Positions 46,746 to 63,913 of a DNA stretch of 64,000 bases are shown piece after piece. A program made the translations under genes and the position numbers. The notes under the pieces were generated by a model. That model ran no database searches and had not been told where the DNA came from. It worked only from the letters and a program-made list of their open reading frames with translations. The number at the start of each line of letters is the position of its first letter. Position 1 is the first letter of the stretch. This stretch comes from an uncultured Dehalococcoidia bacterium (GTDB taxonomy: Bacteria > Chloroflexota > Dehalococcoidia > Lucifugimonadales > UBA3495), in the NCBI GenBank assembly GCA_950072105.1, contig CATMOE010000002.1, forward strand, positions 64,001 to 128,000, read 5' to 3'.

Positions 46746-47545
46746 TACAGGCCTATGAACAGCCTGGCGTTTTCGCCCAAGATGCCTTCCTTCTGGGTGT
46801 CGGACAGGGGGAGACTCTCGATGTAGTCGGACTCTTCGGCTTGACTGACCAGCGGGTAATCGGTGCCGAAGCAAACTTTATGGGCGCCGTGTTTGTTGAT
46901 GATGGCGGTTAGGGTGTCCGAGGCTATATCCCGCAGTGACGGCGGCCAGGTTGTGTCAACGAGCACGTTTCCCTGGCCGATGACTTCCCGCTCCGCCTCA
47001 TCCAACATGTAGAGTCCGCCTAGGTGGAGAGCAATCACTTTTAGGCGAGGGAATTGGCGGACCACGTTCATGATCCGCTCCGGCGCCGCATAAAGCGTTT
47101 CGTCCGGCTGGGCGTTGGGGAACCGGCCCGAGTGTATCTCAAGGACCATGTCGTCACCCAGTTCTTCGTAGACGGGGAACATCTGCGGGTCGTCAGGATA
47201 AAAGCTGTTCATCATGGGGTGAAGTTTGATGCCCTTGATGCCGTTCTCGCGGAGGCGGCGCACCTCGCCGGCTTTGTCATCCATGGCCGGATGTAACGCG
47301 CCGAAGGGCACGAGCATGTCATCTTGGATAGAGATGAGCCAGTCATTGGCCCGCCGCACCTGGTTGGGGCGGTCCACGATGCCCAGCACGATGGACTTGT
47401 CCACTCCTGAGGCCCGCATGTGGGCCTTGATACCGTCCACCGTGTTGGAGGAGACTGCCTCAAAGCCCAGGTCCTTGGTCATTGAGTCCAGCACAGCCTC
47501 GGCGATGCGGTCCGGCCAGACATGGGTGTGAACGTCTACCCGCAT
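46745..47545 (-). CDS. Amidohydrolase family 2 protein
   Basis: DVHTH, GIKGIKLHP, LHLGG, FGTDYP. Confidence 0.9.
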   Translation of the reverse strand: MRVDVHTHVWPDRIAEAVLDSMTKDLGFEAVSSNTVDGIKAHMRASGVDKSIVLGIVDRPNQVRRANDWLISIQDDMLVPFGALHPAMDDKAGEVRRLRENGIKGIKLHPMMNSFYPDDPQMFPVYEELGDDMVLEIHSGRFPNAQPDETLYAAPERIMNVVRQFPRLKVIALHLGGLYMLDEAEREVIGQGNVLVDTTWPPSLRDIASDTLTAIINKHGAHKVCFGTDYPLVSQAEESDYIESLPLSDTQKEGILGENARLFIGL

Positions 47546-47568
47546 AAGTTTTGACTCACTAAATCCTT

Positions 47569-47776
47569 AAAATCCCCCCAACCCCCCTTTACGAAAGCGG
47601 GGTTGGGGGGGTACCCGCTCAGCCGTGTTACTGGCTTTTCGGCGACCCTTGATGGGGATACTTTAATTCAAAATTATGGAACCGGCGACTGAAGACTCTC
47701 CGTTCGGCGGCATAGCTCAAACCGAGTCTTCCAACCCCCGATCTAGCCCCCTTTCGTAAAGGGGGTTGGGGGATTT
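47569..47776. repeat. Inverted pair of family A repeats flanking ~135 bp (REPIN/MITE-like)
   Basis: 47569-47611 forward copy and 47747-47776 reverse-complement copy. Confidence 0.75.
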
Positions 47777-47778
47777 CC

Positions 47779-48990
47779 CTACGCAGTCACCTCGGCCGCT
47801 TTTACTTTGCTGGGGGCGTGCTCCAGGTTGAAGAATTTTACGGTGTTGCCGGCCCACATCTTGAGCTTCTCGTCCTCTGGGACGTTGGCGTAGATCTCTT
47901 CAACGATGGGCTTGGTGTCCGGCCACTCACATTCGATGTGGGGGAAGTCGGTGGCGAACATGATGTGGTCCACACCGATGTGGTGGCGCAATTCCACGGC
48001 CACCCGCTCGTATTGGACGCTGAACAGGATGTGTTCTCTAATGACTTCGCTAGGCAATCGTTTTAGCGGCTTGAAGCCCAACTGCTCCTCCGCCCATCCG
48101 ATGTGGCGCTGGTACCACAGGTCCGCGTGCTCCAGCCAGAATGGCACCCAGCCCAGGCGCGTCTCAGCAAAGAACACTTGCAGCGAAGGGAACCGGTCGA
48201 ACACGCCGGAGAAGACCAGCTGCATGATCCCCACCGCCGGCCTCTGGCCGAAGTTGCATACCCATTCCAGTAGAGGCCGGCGGATCCTCCGCATGGTTTC
48301 CGGGTCTTCTATTGGGTACCTGAAGGTGGGCTCGTGCTCACGAGGTCCCGAGCGGTCGAAGGTCACGTGCACCGTCACCGGCATGTTCATGTCCACCGCC
48401 GCCGCCCAGAACCGGTCGTCCTCGGGCAGGGGGTAGGACTTTCCGTTGGGGTGCGCGCCTAGAACAACCCCTTTCAAACCCAACTTGGCGATGTGTTCCA
48501 GTTCTTCGATGGCGTCGTCCACGTTGGTCCACGGGATTATCCCCATGCCGATCAGGCGGTCCGGGTCCACCGGGCAATACTCCTCGCCCAGCCAGTCGTT
48601 ATAGGCCCGGATCATCGACTTGTAAACATCATCGTGGCTGATGTTGCGCCACAGGGACGGCCCGGCTACCTGGGCTGGGAACAACACCTCGCCGTCAAGA
48701 CCGTCCTGGTCTTGCTCTTGTATCCGCTGCTCCGGCGAACCGATGCCCGCCGCGCCCTCTACCCTCAATCCGAAGGGCTGCCACTGGCCGGTGGCCCGTC
48801 CGGCGCGAAGGTCCAGGAAGTTCGCCTCTCTGAGGGGTTGTCCTTCGATCAGCAACGCGTCGCCGCCGTTGGGCAAAGTGATGCTGCGGGGAGCGCGGTC
48901 GCGGTATTTCTCAGGTACACGGTGTACCCACCGTTCCGGGGGTACTTCCAGGTGGCCGTCGCTGGACATCAGTCGGTAATCCCGAGCCAT
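47779..48990 (-). CDS. Amidohydrolase family 2 protein (decarboxylase/hydrolase-like)
   Basis: S.DGH, AYNDWL.E.Y, GVFDRFP.L, E...GW.P, FATDFPH; GAGGAGG RBS before ATG 48990. Confidence 0.9.
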   Translation of the reverse strand: MARDYRLMSSDGHLEVPPERWVHRVPEKYRDRAPRSITLPNGGDALLIEGQPLREANFLDLRAGRATGQWQPFGLRVEGAAGIGSPEQRIQEQDQDGLDGEVLFPAQVAGPSLWRNISHDDVYKSMIRAYNDWLGEEYCPVDPDRLIGMGIIPWTNVDDAIEELEHIAKLGLKGVVLGAHPNGKSYPLPEDDRFWAAAVDMNMPVTVHVTFDRSGPREHEPTFRYPIEDPETMRRIRRPLLEWVCNFGQRPAVGIMQLVFSGVFDRFPSLQVFFAETRLGWVPFWLEHADLWYQRHIGWAEEQLGFKPLKRLPSEVIREHILFSVQYERVAVELRHHIGVDHIMFATDFPHIECEWPDTKPIVEEIYANVPEDEKLKMWAGNTVKFFNLEHAPSKVKAAEVTA

Positions 48991-49298
48991 GAGATCCTCC
49001 TCGTGCGATTCGATACGTCTATTCGAGTCTAGGGTTAAACTGTGGGCACATGCTAATACTTCTCGACTAAGGTGGCAACTATTGTCCGCCAACGCCACCA
49101 CAAGTTACGGATATCTCCGTCAGATTGCCCGAAAGACTTAAGCAACGTATAATCGCAGGGATTCTAAGCGCCGGTTCCGTCCTGCGGCGCGTGCCGAGAA
49201 TGCGCGCCCGGAAAGCGTGGATAAATAGCGTCGAAAATGACAGTAGGACATCCGGTTAGGCAAAATTCCTAAGCTTGTTTCCCCAGAGGTGGTACTAA

Positions 49299-49901
49299 GT
49301 GCTACGGTCGCTATTCGGAAAAGGGAAGAAAAAAGGCGACGGCTCTCCCTCTTCGCAAGATGACAGTATCCGGGCGGCAAAGGTTGGGGACGTCGTTTCC
49401 ATCTCCGGGCTGCGGCTGGAATACGACGATGTGTACTTTTTCATCGAGAAGATAAACCGCTACTCCAGTGAGACTGAGACTTGGTATGAGGCGCTGTGCG
49501 TGGATGGCGATAATCAAGTGTGGATCGATTGGACTGATGGTCACGATCTCACGGTAACAGCCACCGATGATCCTGAACCGGTAGGTCTGGGGAGCATTGG
49601 GACTACGGAAGAAGAGTTGATTCAACTGGACGAAGAACACTCCATCGACAATTTCATCGAGGTTGAAGGGGACAAGTACTATTACCGGAACAGTACCGAA
49701 GTGACGTTCTACCAGGACAATCGTGGCCAAGGCGAGGGATTTTATAATTGGGACTTGGTCCACGAGGATGGTGAACACGTCTTATCCGTGTCCAAGTGGG
49801 AAGGGAAGCCTTTCGAGGCTACGTTCAGCGAGGTGATATCACCGGATAGGATCGTCTTATACAAAGGGGACCGCGGGGACGCTGGGAAAGGGAGGAAATA
49901 A
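49299..49901 (+). CDS. DUF4178-like domain protein
   Basis: VGD.V, RY......WYE, W.D, Y.Y..S, ..Y.WD......LS..KW; overlaps the DUF350 gene by 1 nt (TAATG). Confidence 0.65.
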   Translation: MLRSLFGKGKKKGDGSPSSQDDSIRAAKVGDVVSISGLRLEYDDVYFFIEKINRYSSETETWYEALCVDGDNQVWIDWTDGHDLTVTATDDPEPVGLGSIGTTEEELIQLDEEHSIDNFIEVEGDKYYYRNSTEVTFYQDNRGQGEGFYNWDLVHEDGEHVLSVSKWEGKPFEATFSEVISPDRIVLYKGDRGDAGKGRK

Positions 49902-50803
49902 TGATTGAGAGCATTATCGACACGCTGCAGGCATTCCCACGGGGGCTAGTGTTCGTTGGGTTGGGGTTGGTGGTACTTCTACTGGCCAAACTGGCGCGAG
50001 ACTTGATAACGCCATACAAGATCGATCAGGAAGTCGGCGAAAAACAGAATCTAGCGGTGTCTTTGCGGCTGACCGGATACCTTGCCGGAGTGATTCTGGT
50101 TTTCCTGGGTGCGTTATATCAAAGTCCGACGCTGGTAGGCCCTGAAGGGCTGGGATTCGACCAAGCCTTTGGACAAGAGGTATTAAGGGTCTTCATTTAC
50201 TCTCTAGCCGGGATAGTTGCGTTGAACCTGGTTCGGCTGGTGATGGACCGGGTGATACTGTACAAGTTCAAGCTAGAGGAAGAAGTGGTGCGGGGGCAAA
50301 ACGTGGGCGCCGGGGCCGCTGAGTTGGGCATGTACGTGGCCACGGGACTGATGATTGCCGGTGCGATTTCCGGCGATGCAGCCGGCACGGAGCTCAATGC
50401 GGCGTTGATCGCCCTGGCGTTCTTCGGGCTCGGATTGGCATTGCTGGTGGTATTCGCTCTGTTCTATCAGATCACCACGCCCTACGATATACACTCGGAG
50501 ATAGAGGGCAGCAATACTGCGGTGGGTGTCGCCTTCGGTGGCAACTTGGTCGCGATCGGCCTGGTGACCTTTAAAGCCCTTTTCGGGGATTTTACCGGGT
50601 GGGGCGAAAGTATCGCGGCGTTCCTCACATTCGGAATAATCGGGTTTGTTTTGCTATACGTGATGCGGTTTCTGATCGATCTGCTTCTACTGCCCAAATT
50701 CAACGTCTCCCAGGCTCTGGCGAATGGACGGAACGTGGGTGTCGCTGTCATTGAAAGCGGGGTGGTAATCAGCGCGGCATTGATCCTGTTTCTGGCGATC
50801 TGA
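49901..50803 (+). CDS. DUF350 (YjfL-like) membrane protein, tandem domains
   Basis: Repeated TPY.I..E....N.AV and EE....N..AG motifs; about 8 TM helices. Confidence 0.85.
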   Translation: MIESIIDTLQAFPRGLVFVGLGLVVLLLAKLARDLITPYKIDQEVGEKQNLAVSLRLTGYLAGVILVFLGALYQSPTLVGPEGLGFDQAFGQEVLRVFIYSLAGIVALNLVRLVMDRVILYKFKLEEEVVRGQNVGAGAAELGMYVATGLMIAGAISGDAAGTELNAALIALAFFGLGLALLVVFALFYQITTPYDIHSEIEGSNTAVGVAFGGNLVAIGLVTFKALFGDFTGWGESIAAFLTFGIIGFVLLYVMRFLIDLLLLPKFNVSQALANGRNVGVAVIESGVVISAALILFLAI

Positions 50804-50815
50804 CCGTTAGCGGGG

Positions 50816-50881
50816 CCTTCGACAGGCTCAGGCCGAACGGAATGAAACACTCCCGCCGTTCGTGGTGAGCCTGTCGAACCA
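50816..50881. repeat. Palindromic repeat family B copy (opposite orientation)
   Basis: CCTTCGACAGGCTCAGG..CGAACGG...CCGTTCGTGGTGAGCCTGTCGAACCA. Confidence 0.85.
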
Positions 50882-51062
50882 CTGTTTTCAACTAGGTCTA
50901 GTGCTTCATCCAGGTAGAAATGCCGAATGTCGTTCCCACCCTTCCGCCGAAGGGCTGGTGTCGGAAGGACAAAGTGTGCGACCGAAAGTTGTCCATTCTA
51001 TTTTCGGAGCAATGACAGGCTGTCGCAGCCAGCTAGTAGACCACAATTAGCTTGACCTAGCA

Positions 51063-52163
51063 CTAAGACTCGGCCCTTGCGCTCTGGATAATCTCTTCCC
51101 GGCTTGCTGATTCTCTGGCCTCTTCGTGCTTCTCCTCTAGATACACGAAACCAGCGCCTACGATACGCTCCAACAGCTGCTCTTCTACGTCTTGCCGGTT
51201 TACCACGGGTTCGAGAATTCCGGCAAAGAAACTTTCGTCGCTGATTAGTTCTTGCCAGGTTGACCCGAAGGCATCGAGGGTCCCGTCGTACAGGCGCAGC
51301 AGGAAAAGAGTCCTTATGGGGTCCAGCCCCTCGGCGATAAATACCAGCACACGCAGGTCAGCGCCGCGTCCTGTGTCGAATTCAACCATATCAGCGTCCT
51401 CTTCAGATGCGGTGTCTTTGAAGTGGTCGTACAGGTCGATGTAGGACTCGGTTTCGGCCAGCAGGCGGCCGATGAACCTCCGGCCTTCTCGGGTGATGGC
51501 GAAAGTGTTGGTTTCTGGAGAGAGGGCTATCAGTTCTTGTGCCTGGAGCAAGTGGGCTATGGATAGCAAGGCATGATCAACCACGCCGGGCGGAGATACC
51601 TGGAGGCGCAGTTCGTGTTTGTCCATGAAGTAGAGAAGGGTGTGGGTTTGCAGCCATTCCAGAAGTTCGGCTTTGGTGTCCCAGAAGCCTTGCCGTATCG
51701 CGTATTCCAGCGGCTGGTAGTGGCGGTGGATGTGCAGGTGAAATCCCCCAGCCCCCCCTTTCGTAAAGGGGATCTTTGCGTCCCCTGGTTGCAGATGATT
51801 TGTGATCGGGTCAGCCAGGTCTAGAGGCTGGTTGGCATCGTTTTGGAAGGATAGGGTGGAGCGACCGGTTCTCCACTCATCGAAAGCGTCCAGGATGGTT
51901 TCGTAGATGTCTGGTAGGTCTGGATTGGCGCGGACGTCCAACAGGGAGATCACTCGTTGCTGTTGGTCTTCGTCCTCGGGAAAGACCTGGTCCAAGAAAT
52001 CGGACAGGGAAGTAGCCGCGGACGGGGACGGCAATTGGATGCGCAGGCCGTCCTCCGGGTCCATACCGTCCAGCGCCACATGGAGTTCAAATGCGCCACC
52101 TGATTCTGGCGTGGGATGTTGTGGTGATTGGTCTGGGCCGGGAACTGCGCCGCCGTTGTTCAT
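51063..52163 (-). CDS. Hypothetical protein with possible beta-grasp N-terminus and winged-helix-like central domain
   Basis: L.AQELI.....F.IT.EGR wing pattern; ATGA overlap with the upstream lipoprotein gene. Confidence 0.75.
   Translation of the reverse strand: MNNGGAVPGPDQSPQHPTPESGGAFELHVALDGMDPEDGLRIQLPSPSAATSLSDFLDQVFPEDEDQQQRVISLLDVRANPDLPDIYETILDAFDEWRTGRSTLSFQNDANQPLDLADPITNHLQPGDAKIPFTKGGAGGFHLHIHRHYQPLEYAIRQGFWDTKAELLEWLQTHTLLYFMDKHELRLQVSPPGVVDHALLSIAHLLQAQELIALSPETNTFAITREGRRFIGRLLAETESYIDLYDHFKDTASEEDADMVEFDTGRGADLRVLVFIAEGLDPIRTLFLLRLYDGTLDAFGSTWQELISDESFFAGILEPVVNRQDVEEQLLERIVGAGFVYLEEKHEEARESASREEIIQSARAES
51741..51771. repeat. Family A repeat inserted in-frame in a CDS
   Basis: AAATCCCCCAGCCCCCCCTTTCGTAAAGGGG, read as PFTKGGAGGF on the minus strand. 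Confidence 0.75.
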
Positions 52164-52966
52164 CCAGGCCGGTTCCCGGTGTTTATCCGCATGGCGCCGC
52201 CACCCCCTCTCGCCCCGGAGCGACCCGAAGAGCGGAAGGAAGACCTTGACGACCGGGTGCGGGACACCGCGCTGCTTTTCTTGAAGGCACCGCTGGTCTT
52301 CTGGGTCTGCTGATAGGTTTGGCGGTTGCTGCCGACGTTGTTTCTGGCTTGCTGATATCGAGACCCGGCGAATGACGCCTGTTTTCGGTTAAAATTGCTG
52401 TTTCTTTGCGCTTGCCGGCTATAGGCTGAGGACTGGCGGTATCTGGACCGCTGGTTCCTCATCGTGGATCCCCGGGATATGGGAGTAGAGTAGTAATAGC
52501 CCCGGGGAGAGATGGCGGAGATCAGCATATAGGTGAACAGGAAATTTCCGGCGCCAAAGGAGCTACGGTAGTACCCGTTGCCGTTGTGGCCCCTCATGTT
52601 GTATTGATTTTCGTTGCCCTTGACGATGGAGAACAATCGATCGTCCTTGGCGTCGTCAATCTCATTGTTGCCGTCCAGGTCTTCCCATCCTTCCAGGGTC
52701 AACCCTTCACCGTCCTGGCTAGCCCGGATCAGAACCAGGCCGTCACCCTCGTAGATCTTGTTGACTTTTTCCTCGAATTCCGTGGCGCTCTTGGAGTTTT
52801 TGAACGCCTCTTGAACGTCGTCCAGGTTGATCCGGCCCGCCGCTCCGTCGGTGGCTGCCCAGTTGTCGTAGGACGCTCCGGAGCCACATGCGGCGATCAG
52901 TGGCGATGCGGCTACGACGCCGCCCAAGGAAACCGCCGTCCACTTGCTGAAACGTTTGCCAGCCAT
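52160..52966 (-). CDS. Lipoprotein with basic R/S/Q-rich low-complexity tail (UPF0323/DUF1190-like)
   Basis: Lipobox IAAC; EF-hand-like DLDGNNEID; hydrophobic FL..YM patch followed by an R/S/Q/G tail ending RGGGG; AGGAGG RBS. Confidence 0.75.
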   Translation of the reverse strand: MAGKRFSKWTAVSLGGVVAASPLIAACGSGASYDNWAATDGAAGRINLDDVQEAFKNSKSATEFEEKVNKIYEGDGLVLIRASQDGEGLTLEGWEDLDGNNEIDDAKDDRLFSIVKGNENQYNMRGHNGNGYYRSSFGAGNFLFTYMLISAISPRGYYYSTPISRGSTMRNQRSRYRQSSAYSRQAQRNSNFNRKQASFAGSRYQQARNNVGSNRQTYQQTQKTSGAFKKSSAVSRTRSSRSSFRSSGRSGARGGGGAMRINTGNRPG

Positions 52967-55900
52967 CTAGTTCCTCCTTGTCGATCCCGAATCCCCAGCC
53001 AGGGCCATTGGCCGGTCCGCTATGAGTGTTTGTACGTCGTCGTTCAACTGAACTTTAGGTGTAGAGAGGGCGTATCCCTTGGCCGAAGGGAAGGCAAATA
53101 GGCGAAACATGAACTCGGCGTTCACCCGCTCCCAGAAGCCTTGCCACGCTTGAAAACTACGTTGGATGTAGAGGGCCACCGCCGATTTGTGGTCGGTGGA
53201 CGCCAGCAGTTGGTTGGAGATAGAGTCCTGCAACTCGACGATGTGCGCCTTCCAAATCTCGTCGCAGGCCTTCAAGTAGATCGAACGGGCCAGGGCGGCA
53301 TACTCTTTGGCGCCCTGGCTACTCTCCAGATCTGCCATTCTGTCGATGAACAAGTGGCCAAGTTCTTCGGGAAGGATGTTCATGTCCCATCCCCTCAGTG
53401 AGGAGCAATCGACTTGGTAGTCCAGTTGAACTTCTTCAACCAGCCGGTCGAACTGGGCATCGTATTCTTCCAAAGTGACCTGGGGAAAGTGGGCGGACAC
53501 GAGTTCAATAGCCCTTTCCTGGGCCTGATCGCGCCAGAGAGATGGACCGGAGCCCGGTGAACCGGCAACGGCTACTTCCCCGCGCCGCCGGTAAAACAAT
53601 CTGGTCTGGTGGTCCAGCACCGAGGCGTAATCCTGTACCAAGGCGCGTTGGGTCTCGCCCTCATGTTCGGCGATACCTTGCACCTCTTGAACGTGCCGGT
53701 CGACGTCTTGGCCCGAATAGTAGGTTCGGCCCATTCCATCCAAGTCGCGGCGCTTGGTCAGCTTGAGCACGCCGTCCACGTGAAGGTTAAGCAACCGGTC
53801 TTCCAAGGACAGGAAAGTTTGGGACACACCGAAGCTGCCTTGACGGCCGCTGCGGCCGTTCAGTTGGAGGTCGATTCGCGGAGTATCGTTGAGTTCGGTG
53901 CCAATCACCCGAAGACCTAAAGCGAAGTCCAGCGATCGCGGCTTGGCGGTAATGCCTGAGGTGTCATGGAGCCGAACGGTGAGCCTGAGGCCGTTCGGGG
54001 AACCCTCTTTTTCTACGCGAAGGCCGGAATCGGCTAGCAGTAGAGATTTCAAGACGCTGAACTCCCGGGGAGACAGGCAGTTGATCTCAACGGAGCCGTC
54101 TTCTCGCTCGAGAGTCTGGTGGACCAATCTGATGCAACGCTGGGCGATCTGGCCGTCTAAGCCCGGCGCCAGCAGGATGTCGGTACCCCGGCCGGCCATG
54201 TTGGTTGCTACCGTGGCCGCGCCGAAGGAGCCGGCATTCCTGATGATTTCCGCTTCGGTGTCCGAATTGACGGCGTTGAGCAGGTTATGAGGAATCGCTT
54301 TATCCGAGAGCATTCGGCTGATCTCTTGGGATTGCTCCACCGTGAGGGTCCCCACCAGGACCGGCTGTCCCAGTTCATGACTGGAGATCACCTGATCGAT
54401 GATCGCCGAAGTTTTTTCAGCGTCGGTGAGATAGACCCGATAGCCAAGATCCACTCGTTGCAGGGGATGCATCGGCGGCAGCACGGTTACCGGTAAACCG
54501 TACTTCTGCTGAAATTCGTCCTGGGAACCGATGGCGGTGCCGGTCATTCCGCAAAGAGATTGGAACTGCTTGACGAACCCTTCAACGGAGATATGACCCA
54601 GGGTTTCACCCTCCGGATTGGGAGTAAGCCCTTCTTTGGCTTCCAGAGCGGGCTGCAGGCCGTGCTGGTAGATGGCGTCGGGCTTAGGCCGCCCCGTGGC
54701 TTTGTCGATAAGCACCAGTTGGTCCTCGGCCACCAGGTAATCCACGTCCCGCTCCAGCAGCAGGTAGGCCCGGAGCATCTGATAAACCTGGTTGCCCAGA
54801 TTGTATTGCCGGGCCAGGCGGGTGGTTAGGCTCGCCGCCTTCTTGCGGCGCTCTGCCAAGGGCATTTCGCGGTTGGTCCAAAGGGACTCCAGAGACTCCT
54901 CCATCGAACGGCCGTCGTAGAAAGGACCCAAACATTGGGTAAGGAAATCCCGGCCCTTTTCCGCCAGGGTAACGAAACGTCTATCTGGGTCGATAACGTA
55001 ATAAAGCTCCGATGTGAGGCCGGTCTGTTCCTGCTCAGCTTCAGATTTAATCTCTTTGAAGCGTCGGGGGTTGTCACGTAATCGCTGCTCTAGGGCGGGG
55101 TTATCCGGTTCGGCTAGGAGCAGCTTGGCTAGGATGTGGGAGGCTCCATCTAGGCTCGTGTCCGGCCGGGCGAGTTCACCCGCTAATTCCCGGACAACGT
55201 CCCTTTGCAGCCGAATCAGTTGGGTGACGGCCTTCTTCACTTTGGCCGTGGGACTACGGTTTCCCAGGGGAGCGCCGGATATAATCATCGGCGTTGACGC
55301 TTCGTCGATCAGCCCGTGATCCGCTTCGTCGATGATGGCCGCATCCAGCTTGCCTTGAACGCGGGACGAGGCGGTTGTCTTAAGATTGTCACGGAGATAG
55401 TCGAACCCCATCTCCCGCATAGTGCTGTAGACGATCGCCATCTGGTAGTTATATCTTCGTTCGTCGTCCTCCATGTATTCGAGCACGGCCCCTACGGTGA
55501 TGCCCAGTGACTGGTAAACGGGAGCCAGTAGGTCGGCGTCCCTGGCCGCCAGGTAATCGTTGGCGGTGATGACATAAACTGAGGTCCCAGCCACGGCATG
55601 TAACACTGCCGGAAACGCCCCGGCGACGGTTTTGCCTTCGCCGGCGTTCATCTGGACGATATTTCCTTGAAATAGGTGCAGTCCAGCCAATAACTGCTCC
55701 TCGGTAGCTTCAAAGGTGAGATGCCCTTTCTCGTCTTGCCTTCGCAATGCTTGGTAAAACCCGGCGGGCATGGAGATGTCCCAAGGCGGCCTAACTTGGA
55801 TCTCCCGGTGCACCATTAACATGGCATCAACGATGGTCTGTTGATCGGGGCCGGTTGCGGCTGTCCCGGATGACCCTCGGGAGAGGTCTGCCGTTCGCCA

Positions 55901-56227
55901 ACAGGTTTGCAGGGATTCAGGAAGGGATTTCCGGTCGAAGCCGGTGTCAAACAGCCGCCAGGCGCCAAGGCGGCGACTGATGACCTCGCTAACGATGGCG
56001 AAGACTTCCGGCAGGACTTGACTGACGCTCGGATGCGGCGGACGTGTCCGTAGGCGCGCCATCGCGTCCTTGAGATCCGTGTCGGAATAGGCTGTTACGT
56101 CGTGCCGGCGAATCGCGTCCAAAACCGCCCGGCTGTCTTTCGGCGGCCCGAGCTTCGGATGTGAAGTCGGCGGTCCCTGGTTAACCGGCCCAAACGTCAA
56201 TGCTGATGATCCCAACAAGGAATTCAC
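52967..56227 (-). CDS. secA: Divergent SecA paralog (accessory SecA2-like translocase ATPase)
   Basis: M.AGEGKT, T.NDYLA.RD, GFDYLRDN, IIDEAD..LIDEA.TP.IISG, EAKEG, GMTGTA, GQPVLVGT, ATNMAGRGTDI, QL.GRSGRQG, LSLED; no C-terminal Zn-binding motif. Confidence 0.85.
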   Translation of the reverse strand: MNSLLGSSALTFGPVNQGPPTSHPKLGPPKDSRAVLDAIRRHDVTAYSDTDLKDAMARLRTRPPHPSVSQVLPEVFAIVSEVISRRLGAWRLFDTGFDRKSLPESLQTCWRTADLSRGSSGTAATGPDQQTIVDAMLMVHREIQVRPPWDISMPAGFYQALRRQDEKGHLTFEATEEQLLAGLHLFQGNIVQMNAGEGKTVAGAFPAVLHAVAGTSVYVITANDYLAARDADLLAPVYQSLGITVGAVLEYMEDDERRYNYQMAIVYSTMREMGFDYLRDNLKTTASSRVQGKLDAAIIDEADHGLIDEASTPMIISGAPLGNRSPTAKVKKAVTQLIRLQRDVVRELAGELARPDTSLDGASHILAKLLLAEPDNPALEQRLRDNPRRFKEIKSEAEQEQTGLTSELYYVIDPDRRFVTLAEKGRDFLTQCLGPFYDGRSMEESLESLWTNREMPLAERRKKAASLTTRLARQYNLGNQVYQMLRAYLLLERDVDYLVAEDQLVLIDKATGRPKPDAIYQHGLQPALEAKEGLTPNPEGETLGHISVEGFVKQFQSLCGMTGTAIGSQDEFQQKYGLPVTVLPPMHPLQRVDLGYRVYLTDAEKTSAIIDQVISSHELGQPVLVGTLTVEQSQEISRMLSDKAIPHNLLNAVNSDTEAEIIRNAGSFGAATVATNMAGRGTDILLAPGLDGQIAQRCIRLVHQTLEREDGSVEINCLSPREFSVLKSLLLADSGLRVEKEGSPNGLRLTVRLHDTSGITAKPRSLDFALGLRVIGTELNDTPRIDLQLNGRSGRQGSFGVSQTFLSLEDRLLNLHVDGVLKLTKRRDLDGMGRTYYSGQDVDRHVQEVQGIAEHEGETQRALVQDYASVLDHQTRLFYRRRGEVAVAGSPGSGPSLWRDQAQERAIELVSAHFPQVTLEEYDAQFDRLVEEVQLDYQVDCSSLRGWDMNILPEELGHLFIDRMADLESSQGAKEYAALARSIYLKACDEIWKAHIVELQDSISNQLLASTDHKSAVALYIQRSFQAWQGFWERVNAEFMFRLFAFPSAKGYALSTPKVQLNDDVQTLIADRPMALAGDSGSTRRN

Positions 56228-57292
56228 CTAACCCATTGCCTCCTGCAATCCCTGCCATGTATAGCGGTGCGAGCTGATGTACACCAATAGGTCTCCAGGG
56301 GACAAAAATAGGTCTCCGAACTTGAAATGGGGCTTTTTATCCCGAATCACCCCAAGCAGGTTTATATCCTTGCTCAGTAGCTTCACGGCTACCTCTTGGT
56401 AGGTTAACCGCTCTCCAACCGGAGGGTCAACCATCGTGCTGGCCATTGTGCCTTCGACCTTATTGCTGGTCATGGCCTGGGCCAAGATGGTCACGCCCGG
56501 GTCCTGGGTTTCCTGGATCAAGAGATTGTTCGCCATATGTATCGTATAAACCAGGGAGACATCCGCCAAGTTGCTGAACAAGAGCTCGTGACTGAGACTC
56601 AGACATTCGGCGACGACCCTCACGTGGGGGCTCAGGTGGTTGATCACCGAAGCTACCGACGCTACGACGCTGTCGCTGTTGGGATCGTCGTAATCGGTGC
56701 TCAGTATGATGGCCTTGGACGCCCTGCTGAGTTGGGCCCGTTGGTAAGTCTCTTGTTCGAGAGGAGAGCCACGGACGAAAGAGACGTTGGGGTGGCTGAA
56801 TGGCAGGGTCTGTAATTTGTCGGTGATCACGACAATGTCAACTTTTTTGTGGTTGTTGTCGGAAACGAACTCCTCCACGATGTGGCGGACCCTGGTCTCG
56901 TTCGGGAAATGGATGATTAGCAAATGATCTTTGGATTGCACGGTCGCCATACCGTTTTGCTCCCTCATGCGAAGGTCGAATATCCAGTCAACCAACATCC
57001 CGGCGGTAGTGGTAAAGGCCACCAAACCGACCAGAACGATAAAAAACACAGTTCCGATACGGGCGCCAACCGTAGACGCGGACAGATCCCCGTATCCAAT
57101 GGTTGTGATAGAGATGATGCTATACCAGAAACTGTCTCCGAGATTATATTCCGGGTGGACCGGGGCCTCGAAGTAAAAAAAAGTGAGGGCGTTCCCAATC
57201 ACACTGGCAACCAGCACCGCGAACATGGACAGTAAGCCGAGGGTTCTCCTCCGCCGGATCCGGTGCATCAACCTTTTTATCGAATAAAACAT
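56228..57292 (-). CDS. Two-TM potassium channel with RCK/TrkA-N domain
   Basis: Selectivity filter TTIGYGD between two TM helices; FVRG.P......RA....A..AII RCK motif. Confidence 0.9.
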   Translation of the reverse strand: MFYSIKRLMHRIRRRRTLGLLSMFAVLVASVIGNALTFFYFEAPVHPEYNLGDSFWYSIISITTIGYGDLSASTVGARIGTVFFIVLVGLVAFTTTAGMLVDWIFDLRMREQNGMATVQSKDHLLIIHFPNETRVRHIVEEFVSDNNHKKVDIVVITDKLQTLPFSHPNVSFVRGSPLEQETYQRAQLSRASKAIILSTDYDDPNSDSVVASVASVINHLSPHVRVVAECLSLSHELLFSNLADVSLVYTIHMANNLLIQETQDPGVTILAQAMTSNKVEGTMASTMVDPPVGERLTYQEVAVKLLSKDINLLGVIRDKKPHFKFGDLFLSPGDLLVYISSHRYTWQGLQEAMG

Positions 57293-57313
57293 GTGGCGGT
57301 GTTCGGGCGCGGG

Positions 57314-58765
57314 TCACCGGTCCAGAGGGACCGGTGATTGGTTAAGTAGCTTCATGATGACTAGCCCTGCTTGATGGCCGGGGCCGTCGCACTCGTCCAG
57401 ACGGGTCAAAAGATGTCCCCCAGCCCGCAAGATTTTATCGGTGACGGTCGGCTCAGATCGGCGGAACTCTTCTCCCAAATGCGAGTCCAGTGTCCAATCA
57501 GCGGTGACCGAACATTCCAGCCCGGCCCGCTGGGCAACATCCAGGTACTCCTGACGCTCCCTGCTGAACTCTTTTTCACTCTTGAAGGCCAAAGGCATCA
57601 CGTAGAATTCCCTGGACAGATACAATCCCAGTTCGTTATCGAATACTTGCATCAGGTCGGAGAAGGACACCCAGCCTTCCAGGGCGAAGAAAAAGTTTTC
57701 GGGAATATCCTGGGGCACGCGATGGTAGTAGAAATCTTCATCCGCCTCAACCATCTTCACCGTGACTGGAAGCTTTTTTTGGTAACCCAGGATGCGTTCC
57801 GCCGCGTCGTCCTTAAGGAATAAGAAGGGTATGTTCCCATTGGTGGCGTCCACTAAGACTTGAGTACCATCGATATCATACAACAACGCCGTGTGCTGCC
57901 AGAATCGCATGTAACGCTTGGAAAAGCGAAAATCGAACGTGGTTAGAAGCTCCCGTAGTTTCTCGACAGGCACGGGGCCGGTAGCGTTTTCCCCGGCGAT
58001 GATGTATTCCGACTGAAGTCCGTAGTGATCAGTGAGGAACTTCAGCGCCTGCACTTTTTCCGAGCAGATCGCCCCGGCGCCTTCCATGATGTTATCAATG
58101 GTCTCGTCTCCCGATTTGTAGACCAGTTTCTTGCCGATGAACCGGGAGTAGTTTTCAAATTGGGCATCCCAGATCGTTTTGGCCAGTCCTTTCAACAGCT
58201 TTATCTTGTGGCTGGTGGATCCCAGTTGAAGAATGGCATCGGTCTCGTGGCTGCCGAACTCGTGAATCAGGGAATCTCGCACGAATCCAGAGTATCTGGA
58301 TTTGTTGCGGAGCCACTTGCGCCGATGGAAGCCCGTCCAATTGCGGCTGTATTGCAGGTTGATGCGGTCTATCGTTAAATCAACCACCGAAACGTCTTGA
58401 CCCTCCACCTGAAGCTGGTGATTTGTGGGGACCTGGTCCAAAGCGAGGGACTCTTCGCCCTCTTTGAACGCCATACCGGAAAACATGTCCTTCAGTTCAC
58501 CGGCGTCCGTGCTCAGGTAGACCAGGTCTTGCATCGCATAGAGGGCGGCGGCGGAGGGCTGGGTGATGCGGGATTCTTGAAGAAGTTGGCTGATGGGAGG
58601 TTGCTTCAGATATTTGTCCAGCAAGCCTCCTAAAGACAAATAGGCGTCGCCGGGGTCCATACGTAGAGTACATCTCCGGTTGGACACCGTGTCCCACAGT
58701 TGAAGGATCTGATTGTTGGTGTTTTCCACTAAGGGCGCAAACCCGCTGTTCTTAATCTTGATCAT
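57314..58765 (-). CDS. Transglutaminase/NAT-like (papain-fold) protein with N-terminal extension
   Basis: G.GAICSEK..AL (Cys), WQHTALL (His), LVDATNG (Asp) in triad order. Confidence 0.65.
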   Translation of the reverse strand: MIKIKNSGFAPLVENTNNQILQLWDTVSNRRCTLRMDPGDAYLSLGGLLDKYLKQPPISQLLQESRITQPSAAALYAMQDLVYLSTDAGELKDMFSGMAFKEGEESLALDQVPTNHQLQVEGQDVSVVDLTIDRINLQYSRNWTGFHRRKWLRNKSRYSGFVRDSLIHEFGSHETDAILQLGSTSHKIKLLKGLAKTIWDAQFENYSRFIGKKLVYKSGDETIDNIMEGAGAICSEKVQALKFLTDHYGLQSEYIIAGENATGPVPVEKLRELLTTFDFRFSKRYMRFWQHTALLYDIDGTQVLVDATNGNIPFLFLKDDAAERILGYQKKLPVTVKMVEADEDFYYHRVPQDIPENFFFALEGWVSFSDLMQVFDNELGLYLSREFYVMPLAFKSEKEFSRERQEYLDVAQRAGLECSVTADWTLDSHLGEEFRRSEPTVTDKILRAGGHLLTRLDECDGPGHQAGLVIMKLLNQSPVPLDR

Positions 58766-58815
58766 GATTCCGAGTTATTGACGCGCTTGCCGCCGGTGGC
58801 CGGGCCGGTCCAGTG

Positions 58816-60045
58816 TTATACGGCAGCGTGAGGTCCCAAGCCCCACCGGGCGGCGTATTGATCGAAAGTGAACGTGCTCTTCTGAACGAACTCCCCTTGG
58901 GTGGTTAACGCGTAAACCGATGGGAGGCCGATGCCGTTGAACGCGTGGGCCTTGGTCATCGTGTACGATCCGGCATTGTTGAATATTACCTTGTCGCCAA
59001 CCTTCAGCGGGTCCTGGAACCGGTATTCACCTAAGATGTCTCCGGCCAGACAAGTGCATCCAGCCAGCAGATATTTGTGGGGAGCGTCGTCGTCGTGGCC
59101 GACCACGTCGGGCTCGAAATCGTATTCGAATACCTCCGGCATGTGATTGATGCTCGTGTCCAGCACGGCCAACATCGAACCCTCACTGGGGAATACGTCC
59201 AGAACCGTGGACACGATGTACCCGGCGGCTCGGATGAGAGCGGACCCGGGTTCAAAGAACACGTCCACTTTAAGGCGAGCTTTGAGAAAATCCAAAGCCT
59301 GGTGCAGACCGTCAAGGTTTTGCCCGTCCTCGAATAGATAGCCACCACCCAAATTGATCCATTCGAGGTTCTCCAGGATGCTACTGGCGCTGGAGTAGAG
59401 GTGGCGCACCGTGGAGAGCAACTCGCCGAAGTTGGGCGAGTCGCAGTTTGAGTGGAACAGGATGCCTCGGACCCCAGCCAGGCGGGCCGGGTCGTCATGG
59501 AACGCGGCCACCAGGTCTTCCAAGGGAACGCCCAGCTTCGATGCGGGCCGGCAAGGGTCGTAGCGCTCGTCGCCCAGGAAAGAAAGTTGAGGATTTACCC
59601 TCAGCCCACAGCTGGCGCTATCTTTGATGCGGTCGCGGTACATGTCCCATTGGCTCAGGGAGTTGAATGACACGTAGTCGCATAGGGAGCCGATCTCCTC
59701 TACTTCATCGCTCCTTAGGCCAGGCGCCGTGATGTGAAGGGTGCCGCCGCTCGTATTGGCTTTTTGAGCCAGTTTGGCTTCGAAAAGGGAGCTCACAGCG
59801 AATCCGTCCAGGCGTGGGGACATGAGCTTCAAAGCATCGACGAAGGAGAAGGACTTTATCGCGAACAGTACCTGGCACCGGCCTTCTTGGCGCAGCCGAT
59901 CGGCATGGGTGAGGAGTTGGTCGAGGACTGCCTCGTCGTATACGAAGGCCGGAGTAGAGATGTGGGCAAGGCCGCCGGGAAAGGCTTTGGCGTCGTCCAA
60001 AAGGGAGGAAGGCGTTGAATTTGCGCCGGCCTGTTTGGTACTCAT
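58816..60045 (-). CDS. nspC: Carboxynorspermidine/carboxyspermidine decarboxylase
   Basis: LFAIKSF (PLP Lys), SSLFEA.L, GLRVNP, YDPC...S.LG, W.NLGGG, EPG, HMP, G.TCLAGD, YTM.K...FNG. Confidence 0.85.
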   Translation of the reverse strand: MSTKQAGANSTPSSLLDDAKAFPGGLAHISTPAFVYDEAVLDQLLTHADRLRQEGRCQVLFAIKSFSFVDALKLMSPRLDGFAVSSLFEAKLAQKANTSGGTLHITAPGLRSDEVEEIGSLCDYVSFNSLSQWDMYRDRIKDSASCGLRVNPQLSFLGDERYDPCRPASKLGVPLEDLVAAFHDDPARLAGVRGILFHSNCDSPNFGELLSTVRHLYSSASSILENLEWINLGGGYLFEDGQNLDGLHQALDFLKARLKVDVFFEPGSALIRAAGYIVSTVLDVFPSEGSMLAVLDTSINHMPEVFEYDFEPDVVGHDDDAPHKYLLAGCTCLAGDILGEYRFQDPLKVGDKVIFNNAGSYTMTKAHAFNGIGLPSVYALTTQGEFVQKSTFTFDQYAARWGLGPHAAV

Positions 60046-60132
60046 TGAACGTACATGCACGCCATAGACGTTAGGGAGTGTTTCTAAGATTGAGGAATGG
60101 GAGGGTGGTTGATGGGTATTTTAACATACGGG

Positions 60133-60163
60133 AATCCCCCCAACCTCCTTTACGAATGGGGGG
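60133..60163. repeat. Family A repeat copy
   Basis: AATCCCCCCAACCTCCTTTACGAATGGGGGG. Confidence 0.75.
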
Positions 60164-60245
60164 CTCTTTCGGTCTCATCCACACGTGGCTATGGAAGATA
60201 GGGACGTTTGCTTCTATCTTGGCGGTCGAGCCGGAAGGCGTTAGG

Positions 60246-61649
60246 CTACACCCTGGTTTGCTGGCCGGGTATGCCTGATCCGGCGATGCCATTGGTGTTG
60301 CCGGACGGCGTTTCCGCCGATGCGCCTTGGGAGTTTTCCACGGTGACCGGGTTGATAGGGCGCCGGACGGAGTTGGGAGCGATTCCCGCTTTTAAGGCGG
60401 ACATGACGCCGGCCGCCTCCCAATAGTTATCAACGATGTGAAGTTGCCCCTGCTGCCAGGGTAGTTGGGTCAGGTTGTTTCTCATGAGGTTTCGGTTTTC
60501 CCGCACGGCGATGACCGGGATGCCCTGTTCCAGCGCGGCCAGGGTGGGCAGGCCCAGGCATCCGTCGGGTATCACCAAGCAAGAAACGGCACTAGCGGTG
60601 AACACGCCGGGATTTCGGAGTGCTTCTCGATCGGTGACGATTCTGGGGCTTTTTTGTAGGCCCTTGAGGATGGACTGCAAGAAGGTGGTTGATATGGCTT
60701 CAGCGGCCATGCGGGGGTCGACGATGCCGGTGTCCGCGTCCAAGACTTCCTGGGACTCCATCATGGGGGAGTGGGCCGAGGGCACGTCGTAGATGCTGGA
60801 GATGGTGTGGGTAAGCATGGATTCCACGCCACCCCAGGGATTGACCATGCTGCCGCCGCTGTTGAAGTAGTCGCCGTGGTAGCTGGTGGGAACGGTTATG
60901 ACCGACGATATGGCCACGGCGTCGTATTCCCCGCGGTGTCTGTCCAGCAGTTCAAGCACGTGTTCCAAGTCTTCCACCCGTCCCGCCGCCCGGGACGATG
61001 AAGTGTACTCGGAGATCATCACAAGTGGCGGAGTCAACTCGATCACCAGTGGGCAGATCAGCCCATAGGATGCCCGGGCGGCGTTAACCGAGTTGACTGT
61101 CATTGTGTGAAATAGCCGGTCGGTATGCGAGTTCATCAGAACCAGGACACGGTTAGACCGAACCGGCTGCAACCCAGCCGTGCCCATCAGCAAACGGCAG
61201 ATGACGCTGCCTTCCACGTATAGCCCGTTGCCCGGAATCTCGTTGATGTCCGAGGCGTTGACCACGTTTGGGTGGGTGACCAAAGTGTCGCAGACGGAGG
61301 CCAGCAGTTGAGCCACGGGCGTGGCATCACCGGCGTGCCCCCCGATTTCAGCGCCTATCCCGGTTGGTACCAGCAGGATGGCGTTGAAGCTCCCGGTATT
61401 TTCCACTTGGCGGTGGCGAAATTCCAGGATGGAGTTATTGGGCAACCGGCTGGAATCGTTGCCGTCATCGAAGGTTGTGACCTCGCACCGGTATCCGGTG
61501 GCGTCCGAAGACGTGACCACCAACCGCACTGGCGAGACTCCACCGGGCAACTTTTCTCGTGTCTTCTGGGACAGCCATTCCAATAGGTTGCTGCTGTCCG
61601 GCGGCGGGGGTAGATCGAGTCCAATTTCCGAAAGCATCACGGATTTCAA
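60246..61649 (-). CDS. DUF3326 family protein with N-terminal extension
   Basis: VPTGIGAEIGG.AGDA, THPNV.N, YVEG, P.GGVE...H, AH.P, DPR.AAE, GL..SP, IAV.EN, V.NY.EA.G. Confidence 0.85.
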   Translation of the reverse strand: MKSVMLSEIGLDLPPPPDSSNLLEWLSQKTREKLPGGVSPVRLVVTSSDATGYRCEVTTFDDGNDSSRLPNNSILEFRHRQVENTGSFNAILLVPTGIGAEIGGHAGDATPVAQLLASVCDTLVTHPNVVNASDINEIPGNGLYVEGSVICRLLMGTAGLQPVRSNRVLVLMNSHTDRLFHTMTVNSVNAARASYGLICPLVIELTPPLVMISEYTSSSRAAGRVEDLEHVLELLDRHRGEYDAVAISSVITVPTSYHGDYFNSGGSMVNPWGGVESMLTHTISSIYDVPSAHSPMMESQEVLDADTGIVDPRMAAEAISTTFLQSILKGLQKSPRIVTDREALRNPGVFTASAVSCLVIPDGCLGLPTLAALEQGIPVIAVRENRNLMRNNLTQLPWQQGQLHIVDNYWEAAGVMSALKAGIAPNSVRRPINPVTVENSQGASAETPSGNTNGIAGSGIPGQQTRV

Positions 61650-62530
61650 TTTCTTACATCCTCATGATTGGTTGATTCAGTGGTTTCGAAGGTAGTCTTC
61701 CGGCTGGGAACCTTGTCACAGGGGGACGACCACATCTCCGCCACGTCGATGGCGCGCATGAATTCTACGTTGGCGAAGGTGCGGATGTGGGTGATCAATT
61801 GCTCCAACATTTTCAGGCGTCCGGGACGGCCGATGTATTGGGGGTGCATGGTTAGGGTGAAGGCCCGGCCATAGTGATATAGGCCCTCAAACTCGGCTGC
61901 CCAAGTTCCGTAGACTTCCTCCGGGTTGCGCATGGGGCCCAGCCGCCCCGCTGCCGGCGCGTAGACGAAATTTGGGGCGTCGTCCAAGAGCCAATGGATG
62001 GGAATCTCCACCAGGCTTTGGGGAGTGCCCGGATTGAGCATGTATGGCGCGTCATCGCCCATCAGACTGCTGTCGTACAGGAAGCCGTGGGAGGCCAGCA
62101 GGTCCACCGAGCGCTCGCTCAACTCCCAACTAGGGGACCGGTAGCCTCGGGGGGCTTCTCCGGTGATGTCGCCAAGGATGGAGCTGCCCTGGTGCAGCAC
62201 CTCTTCTTCCTTCTCCGGCGTTAAAGAGGCTGGAGGTTCGTGCATGTACCCGTGGTGGGCGATCTCATGCCCCCGGCGGGAGATCTCTTTGACCATCTCA
62301 ACGTGGGTTTCGGCGACATAGCCTGGAACGTAAAAGCTGGCCTTGATGGAGTGGCTGTCCAGCATGTCCAGGATACGGGGGGTTGCGACGCTGGGGCCGT
62401 ATTCGGCCATGGACATCAGGCTGGGAAGCTGGGCGAAGTTGGGGTCGCGGTTCAACCACGAAGAGACGCCGTCGACGTCGAACCCCAACATCACCACGCA
62501 TTGAATGTCTCCGGGCCAGATACCGGACAT
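61646..62530 (-). CDS. Polysaccharide deacetylase (CE4, PuuE/HpPgdA-like)
   Basis: FDVD, HEIAHHGY.HE, GYRSPSW, YDSS, LTMHP. Confidence 0.88.
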   Translation of the reverse strand: MSGIWPGDIQCVVMLGFDVDGVSSWLNRDPNFAQLPSLMSMAEYGPSVATPRILDMLDSHSIKASFYVPGYVAETHVEMVKEISRRGHEIAHHGYMHEPPASLTPEKEEEVLHQGSSILGDITGEAPRGYRSPSWELSERSVDLLASHGFLYDSSLMGDDAPYMLNPGTPQSLVEIPIHWLLDDAPNFVYAPAAGRLGPMRNPEEVYGTWAAEFEGLYHYGRAFTLTMHPQYIGRPGRLKMLEQLITHIRTFANVEFMRAIDVAEMWSSPCDKVPSRKTTFETTESTNHEDVRN

Positions 62531-62555
62531 GTTGTTCCTCCCCGGTCTTGATTGA

Positions 62556-63833: not shown

Positions 63834-63852
63834 ATTAGGTTTGCCGGAGACC

Positions 63853-63913
63853 GCCCTCGCCCCGGCCTGCGGCCACCCTTCTCACTGAGGGTGAGGGGAC
63901 GGGGGTGAAGGGG
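63853..63913. repeat. Degenerate palindromic element, family D (CCCTC.CCCC...CCCT.CTC...GAGGGTGAGGGG), upstream of serS
   Basis: C-rich left arm and G-rich right arm able to pair; single copy in the window. Confidence 0.4.

Follow-up and report, generated by a model that had tools for sequence, protein, structure and literature searches.

What does a bacterial locus do in which a polyamine decarboxylase, a second SecA, a lipoprotein with a glycine-rich end and a cysteine enzyme are encoded side by side? The locus in question lies at 49299-61649 in a 64,000-nucleotide stretch from an uncultured Dehalococcoidia bacterium (assembly GCA_950072105.1, contig CATMOE010000002.1, positions 64,001 to 128,000 of the forward strand), referred to here as the window. 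The initial annotation proposed a polyamine-linked envelope system in which NspC makes (nor)spermidine, a transglutaminase-like enzyme attaches it to a glutamine-rich lipoprotein tail and a dedicated SecA exports the product. We find that the cluster is real and conserved. It belongs with the DUF350-lipoprotein-polyamine envelope clusters as a variant distinguished by a new enzyme family and a SecA paralog, and the literature searched does not describe it. The chemistry that we favour differs from the first proposal: the cysteine enzyme may cut the lipoprotein at its glycine run and transfer it onto a polyamine, and the SecA paralog would then handle the product. Judged from the sequences and predicted structures, this reading has a probability of somewhat under 0.4.

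Conservation of the gene cluster

The co-occurrence of the cluster genes in other genomes, which the initial annotation had set as a test, is seen in 29-30 of the 31 loci found by the cysteine (Cys) protein: NspC and DUF3326 are present in 30, and SecA, the lipoprotein, the winged helix-turn-helix (wHTH) protein, DUF350 and DUF4178 in 29. The potassium (K) channel is patchy in the host family, its sequence being present in 11 of the 31 loci and at full length in 10 (10 of the 29 full clusters). Among 150 genomes of the host's marine Dehalococcoidia family, whose kinship makes the counts non-independent, 93 have the Cys gene, 94 DUF3326, 92 the wHTH gene and 93 at least two SecA matches; 90 genomes combine all four of these, and 52 have none of them. 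The cluster is carried by about 60% of the sampled genomes from this one family, and the Cys gene was not found in a sample of 400 other genomes of the phylum. Plasmid searches with the lipoprotein, DUF3326, the P0499 protein and the Cys protein found nothing.

Outside the host family, 26 of 117 genomes of the same order also carry the wHTH gene, and stretches of up to 20 kb were fetched from 20 of these 26. SecA is present in 18 of the 20 loci, the lipoprotein in 18 (17 in a first count), the Cys enzyme and the K channel, which is common here, in 16 each and DUF350/DUF4178 in 14. A PaaK-like acyl-CoA ligase occurs in 11 and a degenerate copy of the ligase in 9; neither PspA nor an ATP-grasp ligase was found within the fetched stretches. 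As drawn from these counts, the core of the system is Cys-(K channel)-SecA-lipoprotein-wHTH facing DUF4178-DUF350. Immediately upstream of SecA in other families lies a gene for a protein of 220-256 aa (L114:6669-7334 and eight homologs), of which one member has a weak GNAT match (E 0.005) and which has no homolog in the host genome.

A metagenome scan (40 loci) added further arrangements. One locus (L067) keeps SecA-lipoprotein-wHTH-Cys-NspC-DUF3326 at far lower identity, and most of the loci L036-L052 carry a Cys homolog fused to agmatinase, a protein of about 770 aa that is often preceded by a DnaJ-TPR gene and DUF711. The scan also added two loci (L069/L070) with a fusion protein described below; the operon at L069:2336-6734 consists of a degenerate PaaK-like gene, a PaaK-like ligase, this fusion (P0422) and the Cys enzyme. 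The co-occurrence and the gene content bear out the earlier view of a conserved multi-gene system akin to the known DUF350/lipoprotein/polyamine clusters.

The glycine tail of the lipoprotein

The tail of the lipoprotein (residues 166-268) has 22 lysines or arginines and no aspartate or glutamate, and it ends with a glycine run followed by 11 residues. The signal of the protein is weakly hydrophobic, the second lowest among 32 open reading frames (ORFs) with a lipobox pattern. Among the best 120 matches to the cluster lipoprotein, which are close kin (65-92% identical) and not independent, 118 have GGG within the last 30 residues and 117 have 7-14 residues past the last GG. The lipoproteins of other families have the same pattern, with a Gly run in 18 of 18 and 7-15 residues beyond the last GG in 17 of 18. 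As a background, among the 1990 long ORFs of the host genome, GG forms the last two residues in 38 and GGG occurs close to the C-terminus in 51. This conserved pattern supports the tail as a likely substrate, as had been suggested for it. The Gln-rich part of the tail, initially named as the target, has several conserved glutamines (Q185 and Q205 occur in all of 22 lipoproteins, and Q206, Q219 and Q222 in nearly all), but the masked Gly run is the best-conserved feature of the tail.

DUF1190 lipoproteins encoded beside ATP-grasp ligase genes have a free C-terminal GG in six of seven cases, and the seventh ends in CCG; the control comprises these seven proteins only, which are themselves no more than guessed to be ligase substrates. 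The six are E. coli YgiB (L099:2245-2916) and YjfM (L100:2888-3526) and four of five alphaproteobacterial proteins, the five having been chosen among the 25 plasmid records listed out of 95. An ATP-grasp ligase requires a free carboxyl end and the Cys enzyme would require a leaving piece, which is the basis of the transpeptidation proposed here. The DUF1190 model matched 1 of 22 cluster lipoproteins (E 0.083), and the cluster lipoprotein profile was non-significant on the seven DUF1190 proteins; the matches listed in the search with this profile were close relatives only. A relation to UPF0323 is an atlas lead only (0.83), and the atlas has no structure for the lipoprotein or for DUF3326.

The cysteine enzyme

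All homologs compared, 46 of them close and 29 distant, keep C234, H291 and D306 of the Cys enzyme. In the AlphaFold model (pLDDT 79.6), an N-terminal beta-grasp domain (Z ~7) is followed by a cysteine-proteinase fold, for which the best structural matches are arylamine N-acetyltransferases (NATs; Z 10.6, root-mean-square deviation (rmsd) 4.4, 203 residues aligned). The top three Foldseek matches are likewise of the arylamine N-acyltransferase type. Transglutaminases score lower (Z 8.4-9.2; the best is factor XIII with Z 9.2, rmsd 4.4 and 158 residues aligned), and the list of fold matches also includes the peptidases LapG, vasohibin and PeiW. When a profile of the 29 distant homologs was compared with the PDB, all seven matches at E<=10 were NATs or GdmF, although these were weak (E 0.47-2.8), and the alignment places the PFEN and GG.C.E parts of the family motif string (PFEN..GG.C.E..H..D) on the NATs. 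Identity to NATs is 8-16%, and the enzyme scores below the Pfam Acetyltransf_2 cut-off; Transglut_core gives weak matches in 5 of 27 homologs, under the Pfam cut-off in all 27. From the predicted model, the enzyme is best called a member of the arylamine-N-acetyltransferase clade, not a classic transglutaminase. What stands of the initial annotation is a predicted amide-forming Cys-His-Asp enzyme in the usual place of the ATP-grasp ligase, and what is not supported is the transglutaminase assignment, as NATs outrank transglutaminases by both fold and sequence, though the enzyme could still have transglutaminase activity. A second subfamily of such enzymes (P0206-P0259) is about 20% identical, and one cluster of it is named Verrucomicrobiota.

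The wHTH protein and the fusion protein

The Cys and wHTH proteins are each predicted to start with a ubiquitin-like (Ubl; beta-grasp) fold, at middling Z scores of 6-7. In the model of the wHTH protein (pLDDT 86.5), the beta-grasp domain spans residues 22-148 (Z ~6), residues 160-250 match a winged helix (Z 7.2), and the C-terminal part is helical. The wHTH protein is acidic, with a net charge of -39 (family median -36), whereas the last 100 residues of the cluster lipoproteins are basic (median +18).

In the P0422 proteins of L069/L070, a Ubl domain is followed in the same chain by a basic stretch, a hydrophobic segment, a lipobox and a short Gly tail, and the gene directly precedes that of the Cys homolog. 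With the wHTH protein of L067, the Ubl domain shares 25% identity across 153 aa (E 5e-8). By its sequence, the fusion appears to tie the Ubl domain, the lipoprotein tail and the enzyme together. The family has 109 further members, of which the named ones belong to Planctomycetota, including Singulisphaera. Of the full-length fusions, 90 of 98 terminate 1-2 residues past GG; the signal-like segment is C-terminal, and an Arg pair and lipobox are found in 71 of 98. No credible sequence match to the PDB was obtained with the P0422 profile. An ESCRT-like reading of PspA, winged helix and Ubl domain was dropped, since PspA is unlinked in all 20 other-family loci and the winged helix is closest to PadR/MarR.

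The SecA paralog

As the initial annotation had proposed, the SecA of the cluster is a true paralog and not the sole housekeeping copy: another contig of the genome encodes a separate housekeeping SecA of 892 aa, which carries a C-terminal Zn motif. At least two SecA matches are found in 92 of the 93 Cys-positive family genomes; in one family genome (G546) the two SecA matches listed both have scores like those of housekeeping copies. The ATPase motifs of the paralog are intact, and its preprotein-binding domain has an insertion. In 29 family loci, Walker A is kept in 29, DEAD in 27 and motif VI in 28, the Zn motif is found in none, and the fingertip aromatic residue is missing in all 29; the tyrosine is retained in L067. 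Loss of this tyrosine is compatible with export, as E. coli SecA Y794C still translocates according to parts of PMC3518217. The HKSAVA fingertip loop, invariant in the SecA paralogs of the family, was considered as a functional signature and dropped, because it is not kept in other families. The host genome gives one SecY match and no SecY2, and the paralog scores far under every SecA2 model cut-off. Export of a late-modified, basic substrate by the SecA paralog is plausible from its sequence, and a non-export ATPase role would be the alternative.

Polyamine genes and the membrane side

NspC belongs to the CASDC family (profile E 9e-100 to CANSDC 9EAF versus 1e-25 to LysA), with a TIGR01047 score of 300 bits against an equivalog cut-off of 409. 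No PF16653 match for a carboxy(nor)spermidine dehydrogenase was found in the genome, which is incomplete, and the controls were positive in 3 of 14. The claim that NspC makes (nor)spermidine is upheld for the family of the decarboxylase but not for its pathway: NspC is paired with DUF3326 and not with the dehydrogenase, and the product need not be (nor)spermidine. DUF3326 and NspC adjoin in either gene order, and the pair shifts as a cassette between the arms of the cluster in several genomes; it stands beside Cys again in L067/L071 and in L054-type loci. Passages of a preprint (bioRxiv 10.64898/2026.06.12.731819) report that PavA, with an NspC-like domain, and PavB, a DUF3326 protein, are both required for the triamine bis(5-aminopentyl)amine. 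As the dehydrogenase was not found in the genome, DUF3326 is by analogy likely to be the condensing partner of NspC; its profile gave no credible sequence match to the PDB.

Several other genes were seen near NspC-DUF3326 pairs or in the host genome. An AAA/ABC-type ATPase gene (L092:7471-8742, by sequence reading) abuts the pair in G415, where the Cys core is absent. A glutamine-synthetase-like gene, also by sequence reading, lies directly 3' of DUF3326 at L091:6564-7919 and L086:14935-16290, and its product could glutamylate a polyamine. On another contig of the host genome, a membrane spermidine-synthase-like (SpeE) protein with TPR is encoded (L076; G000:C22:49253-51136), unlinked to the cluster.

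The DUF350 protein has seven hydrophobic windows in a simple scan and matches E. coli YjfL by profile, and the K channel is 23% identical to the channel of a Rhizobium yjf cluster. The reported lack of an ATP-grasp ligase extends to the whole genome (92% complete, 6% contamination), in which there was no GSP_synth match. The reported lack of PspA holds within the window, but pspA-pspAA is found 88 kb away on the same contig, and in most family members it flanks the cluster: it lies beside DUF4178 in 25 of 29 family loci, and likewise in 10 of 12 others chosen for odd gene order. The gene 3' of pspA encodes PspAA (PF22743, E 2e-32).

Proposed mechanism and alternatives

We suggest that the locus is an envelope module whose own lipoprotein would be modified at the C-terminal tail while still in the cytoplasm and be moved afterwards. 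If the genetics of PavA/PavB is a guide, NspC and DUF3326 would form a triamine-type polyamine without the usual dehydrogenase. The acidic Ubl-wHTH protein could capture the basic lipoprotein precursor and pass it to the Ubl-bearing Cys enzyme. In what would be the new step, the enzyme attacks a peptide bond of the Gly run, so that an acyl-Cys intermediate forms and the end piece of 7-15 residues leaves; the polyamine would then discharge the intermediate to a protein-Gly-polyamine amide without ATP. This would be the same amide that the ATP-grasp ligases YgiC and YjfC could make from a free Gly-Gly end. The SecA paralog would handle the weak-signal, very basic lipoprotein after its modification, via the single SecY, and DUF350, DUF4178, the K channel and, in the host family, PspA may be the membrane-stress side. 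Taken as a whole, as an ATP-free C-terminal transamidation in bacteria, the proposal is doubtful. In it, a Ubl-docked NAT-clade enzyme would replace the end piece of a Gly-tailed lipoprotein by a polyamine from a new NspC-DUF3326 route, and the product would be delivered by a SecA of its own.

A number of points weigh against the transfer onto a polyamine. Characterised NAT-clade enzymes take thioester donors. The lipoprotein of L067 has no Gly run, though the Cys gene adjoins it, and the tail counts carry the kinship and the small control noted above. The Ubl domains of the Cys and wHTH proteins have no similarity in a profile-profile comparison (probability 0.4%). In other families the SecA fingertip is unconserved and motif VI is off-pattern in 5 of 17, and the agmatinase-Cys fusion loci have no neighbouring SecA, lipoprotein or wHTH gene. 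Of the 20 other-family loci, only 4 have NspC and DUF3326 inside the fetched stretch, and none has PspA there. The PaaK-like ligase is found, besides the other-family loci, in the L054 and L069 operons. That the other-family loci mostly are without linked polyamine genes and many have the PaaK-like ligase favours acyl-CoA chemistry.

Such chemistry is the first alternative: as an acyl-CoA:amine N-acyltransferase, the Cys enzyme would acylate a polyamine or a lipoprotein amine with a donor from the PaaK-like ligase or from housekeeping acyl-CoA. The NAT-clade fold and motifs and the neighbouring ligases, intact or degenerate, are consistent with it, and the agmatinase fusions would supply the free amine. 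However, a homolog of the PaaK-like ligase is found neither in the host genome nor in the 41 full family loci, and the masked Gly run and the Ubl-tail fusion would be left unexplained; we regard this reading as rather unlikely. If the Cys enzyme were instead a processing peptidase or amidase, it would unmask Gly-Gly for an adenylating enzyme (PaaK-like where present) or strip a polyamine added by another enzyme. The tail pattern would be the same, peptidases are among the fold matches, and an adenylating enzyme adjoins Gly-tailed substrates in L069 and in 11 other-family loci; with neither an ATP-grasp ligase nor a PaaK-like homolog in the host genome for the final step, we regard this as clearly improbable.

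The chances are poorer still for the initial version, in which a transglutaminase adds (nor)spermidine to tail glutamines. It draws on the conserved glutamines, the transglutaminase folds and the weak Transglut_core matches, and is opposed by the higher scores of the NATs, by the planctomycete P0422 fusion, which keeps the Gly run without a Gln-rich tail, and by the missing dehydrogenase for (nor)spermidine. It is just as improbable that NspC-DUF3326 and pspA are separate cassettes beside a polyamine-unrelated Cys-SecA-lipoprotein-wHTH core with a SecA paralog that is perhaps a remodelling ATPase: the pair is unlinked in 16 of 20 other-family loci, occurs without Cys (G415, G446, G473, G408) or apart from the core (G460; DUF3326 alone in G421), and the SecA fingertip is degenerate, yet the pair remains in the cluster despite its rearrangement to the other arm and recurs by Cys in distant loci, and the agmatinase fusion is an independent link to polyamines.

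If the transfer of the lipoprotein onto a polyamine is true, the GG-ending DUF1190 lipoproteins YgiB and YjfM would be the physiological substrates of YgiC and YjfC. The contrast between free GG ends in lipoproteins encoded beside ATP-grasp ligases and masked Gly runs in those encoded beside the Cys enzyme offers a cheap test of C-terminal lipoprotein polyamination in E. coli. The cluster also provides a candidate for a new family of NAT-clade enzymes that bear a ubiquitin-like domain, and a class of SecA paralogs that the described SecA2 models do not cover. In addition, it is a case in which the formation of polyamines by DUF3326 could be tested.

Layout of the locus

An ORF check of the window returned all eight ORFs as initially annotated, and their positions confirm six minus-strand genes with gaps of 50, 21, 0, 0 and -4 nt (Table 1). 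The DUF4178 and DUF350 genes share an overlap of 1 nt. The initial annotation (49299..60045) had overlooked the DUF3326 gene, which extends the cluster. Pfam and NCBIfam confirm DUF4178, two DUF350 repeats, four SecA domains, Ion_trans_2 and RCK and a fold-III pyridoxal phosphate (PLP) decarboxylase, and gave no significant family for the Cys, lipoprotein and wHTH proteins.

Table 1. Genes of the cluster with their positions in the window
Feature	Position	Strand	Properties and evidence
DUF4178 protein	49299..49901	+	200 aa, acidic; PF13785 E 2e-10; in 29/31 loci; 0 transmembrane (TM) segments predicted (hydropathy)
Tandem DUF350 (YjfL-type) membrane protein	49901..50803	+	300 aa; PF03994 x2, E 1e-52
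wHTH protein: beta-grasp, winged helix and acidic helical domain	51063..52163	-	AlphaFold model, fold matches; candidate lipoprotein adaptor
Lipoprotein, lipobox Cys27	52160..52966	-	Family alignment, tail statistics; candidate substrate
SecA paralog	52967..56227	-	1086 aa; Pfam/NCBIfam, motif checks
2TM potassium channel, TIGYG filter, RCK domain	56228..57292	-	PF07885, PF22614
Cys enzyme: predicted ubiquitin-like domain (17-137) and NAT-clade Cys234-His291-Asp306	57314..58765	-	AlphaFold model, fold and sequence matches
NspC/CASDC-family PLP decarboxylase	58816..60060	-	Start at 60060 (GTG) or 60045 (ATG); TIGR01047, PDB profile
DUF3326 protein (PavB family)	60246..61649	-	PF11805 E 1e-90; adjoins NspC in 30/31 loci

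In four marine metatranscriptome runs, contigs span 30 of 30 bins of 47500-63900, the flanks included; as the contigs give neither strand nor a single transcript and may contain DNA, they say nothing on co-transcription. Promoter and terminator scans of the locus gave signals no higher than shuffled sequences. A strong hairpin 3' of DUF350 was rejected as a cluster-specific terminator, being a genome-wide repeat. This hairpin and a second element in the intergenic region 50804-51062 are REP-like repeats, for which BLAST gives about 100 hits in all, spread over 51 of the genome's contigs. A second palindromic repeat family (29-45 genome-wide hits) is found at 47546-47778 and 60130-60165, one copy being located between DUF3326 and nspC.

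Comparison with known systems

No description of the gene combination or of the tail contrast was found in the literature searched, with most subscription papers outside its reach. The closest match is the second group of Ravi et al. 2024 (PMC11237479), which in the parts consulted comprises CesT/Tir-PspA, a 7TM-spermidine synthase, an 8TM DUF350 protein, the Ctha_1186 lipoprotein and DUF4178. Shared features are the tandem DUF350, DUF4178, a lipoprotein with a low-complexity tail and a polyamine enzyme; pspA is near the cluster in most family members, though not in the window and in none of the 20 other-family loci. In contrast, PspA occurs here with PspAA and not with CesT/Tir, and is divergent (DUF2170 lacked a genome-wide search); NspC and DUF3326 stand in place of the 7TM-spermidine synthase, which the window cluster is without, and the cluster adds the SecA paralog, the Ubl-NAT enzyme and the Ubl-wHTH protein. 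The terms 'SecA' and 'transglutaminase' are absent from the main text of that paper, and 'SecA' and 'DUF3326' from one of its supplements.

With E. coli yjfIJKLMC/ygiBC (the third group of Ravi et al.), the cluster shares DUF350, a Gly-tailed basic lipoprotein, a predicted amide-forming enzyme and a related K channel, whereas it has no ATP-grasp ligase, its lipoprotein is not DUF1190 and its Gly run is masked and not terminal. Parts of PMC11762307 describe a peptide-spermidine ligase activity of YgiC and state that the physiological substrate of YgiC/YjfC is unknown. In the pavettamine cluster (PavA/PavB), likened here by partial description and not by comparison of sequences, an NspC-like decarboxylase likewise adjoins DUF3326. 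Here, however, NspC is without a Rieske domain (Pfam) and no JmjC partner was seen, and a hydroxylated polyamine is therefore not expected.

SecA2-only and SecA2/SecY2 systems have a second SecA without the C-terminal Zn motif, beside its substrate and the enzyme that modifies it. The cluster is similar in that its second SecA lacks the Zn motif and has a candidate substrate and a candidate modifying enzyme as neighbours, and differs in that there is no SecY2, the insertion is large, the fingertip tyrosine is lost and the scores are below the SecA2 cut-offs. Arylamine N-acyltransferases (NAT1/2, the malonyltransferase FDB2 and the amide synthase GdmF) share the fold, the Cys-His-Asp triad and the PFEN and GG.C.E motifs with the cluster enzyme, which in contrast has an N-terminal beta-grasp domain and low identity to them. 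If the enzyme does exchange the end of the lipoprotein for a polyamine without ATP, the logic would be like that of glycosylphosphatidylinositol (GPI) transamidase or of ubiquitin-precursor processing.

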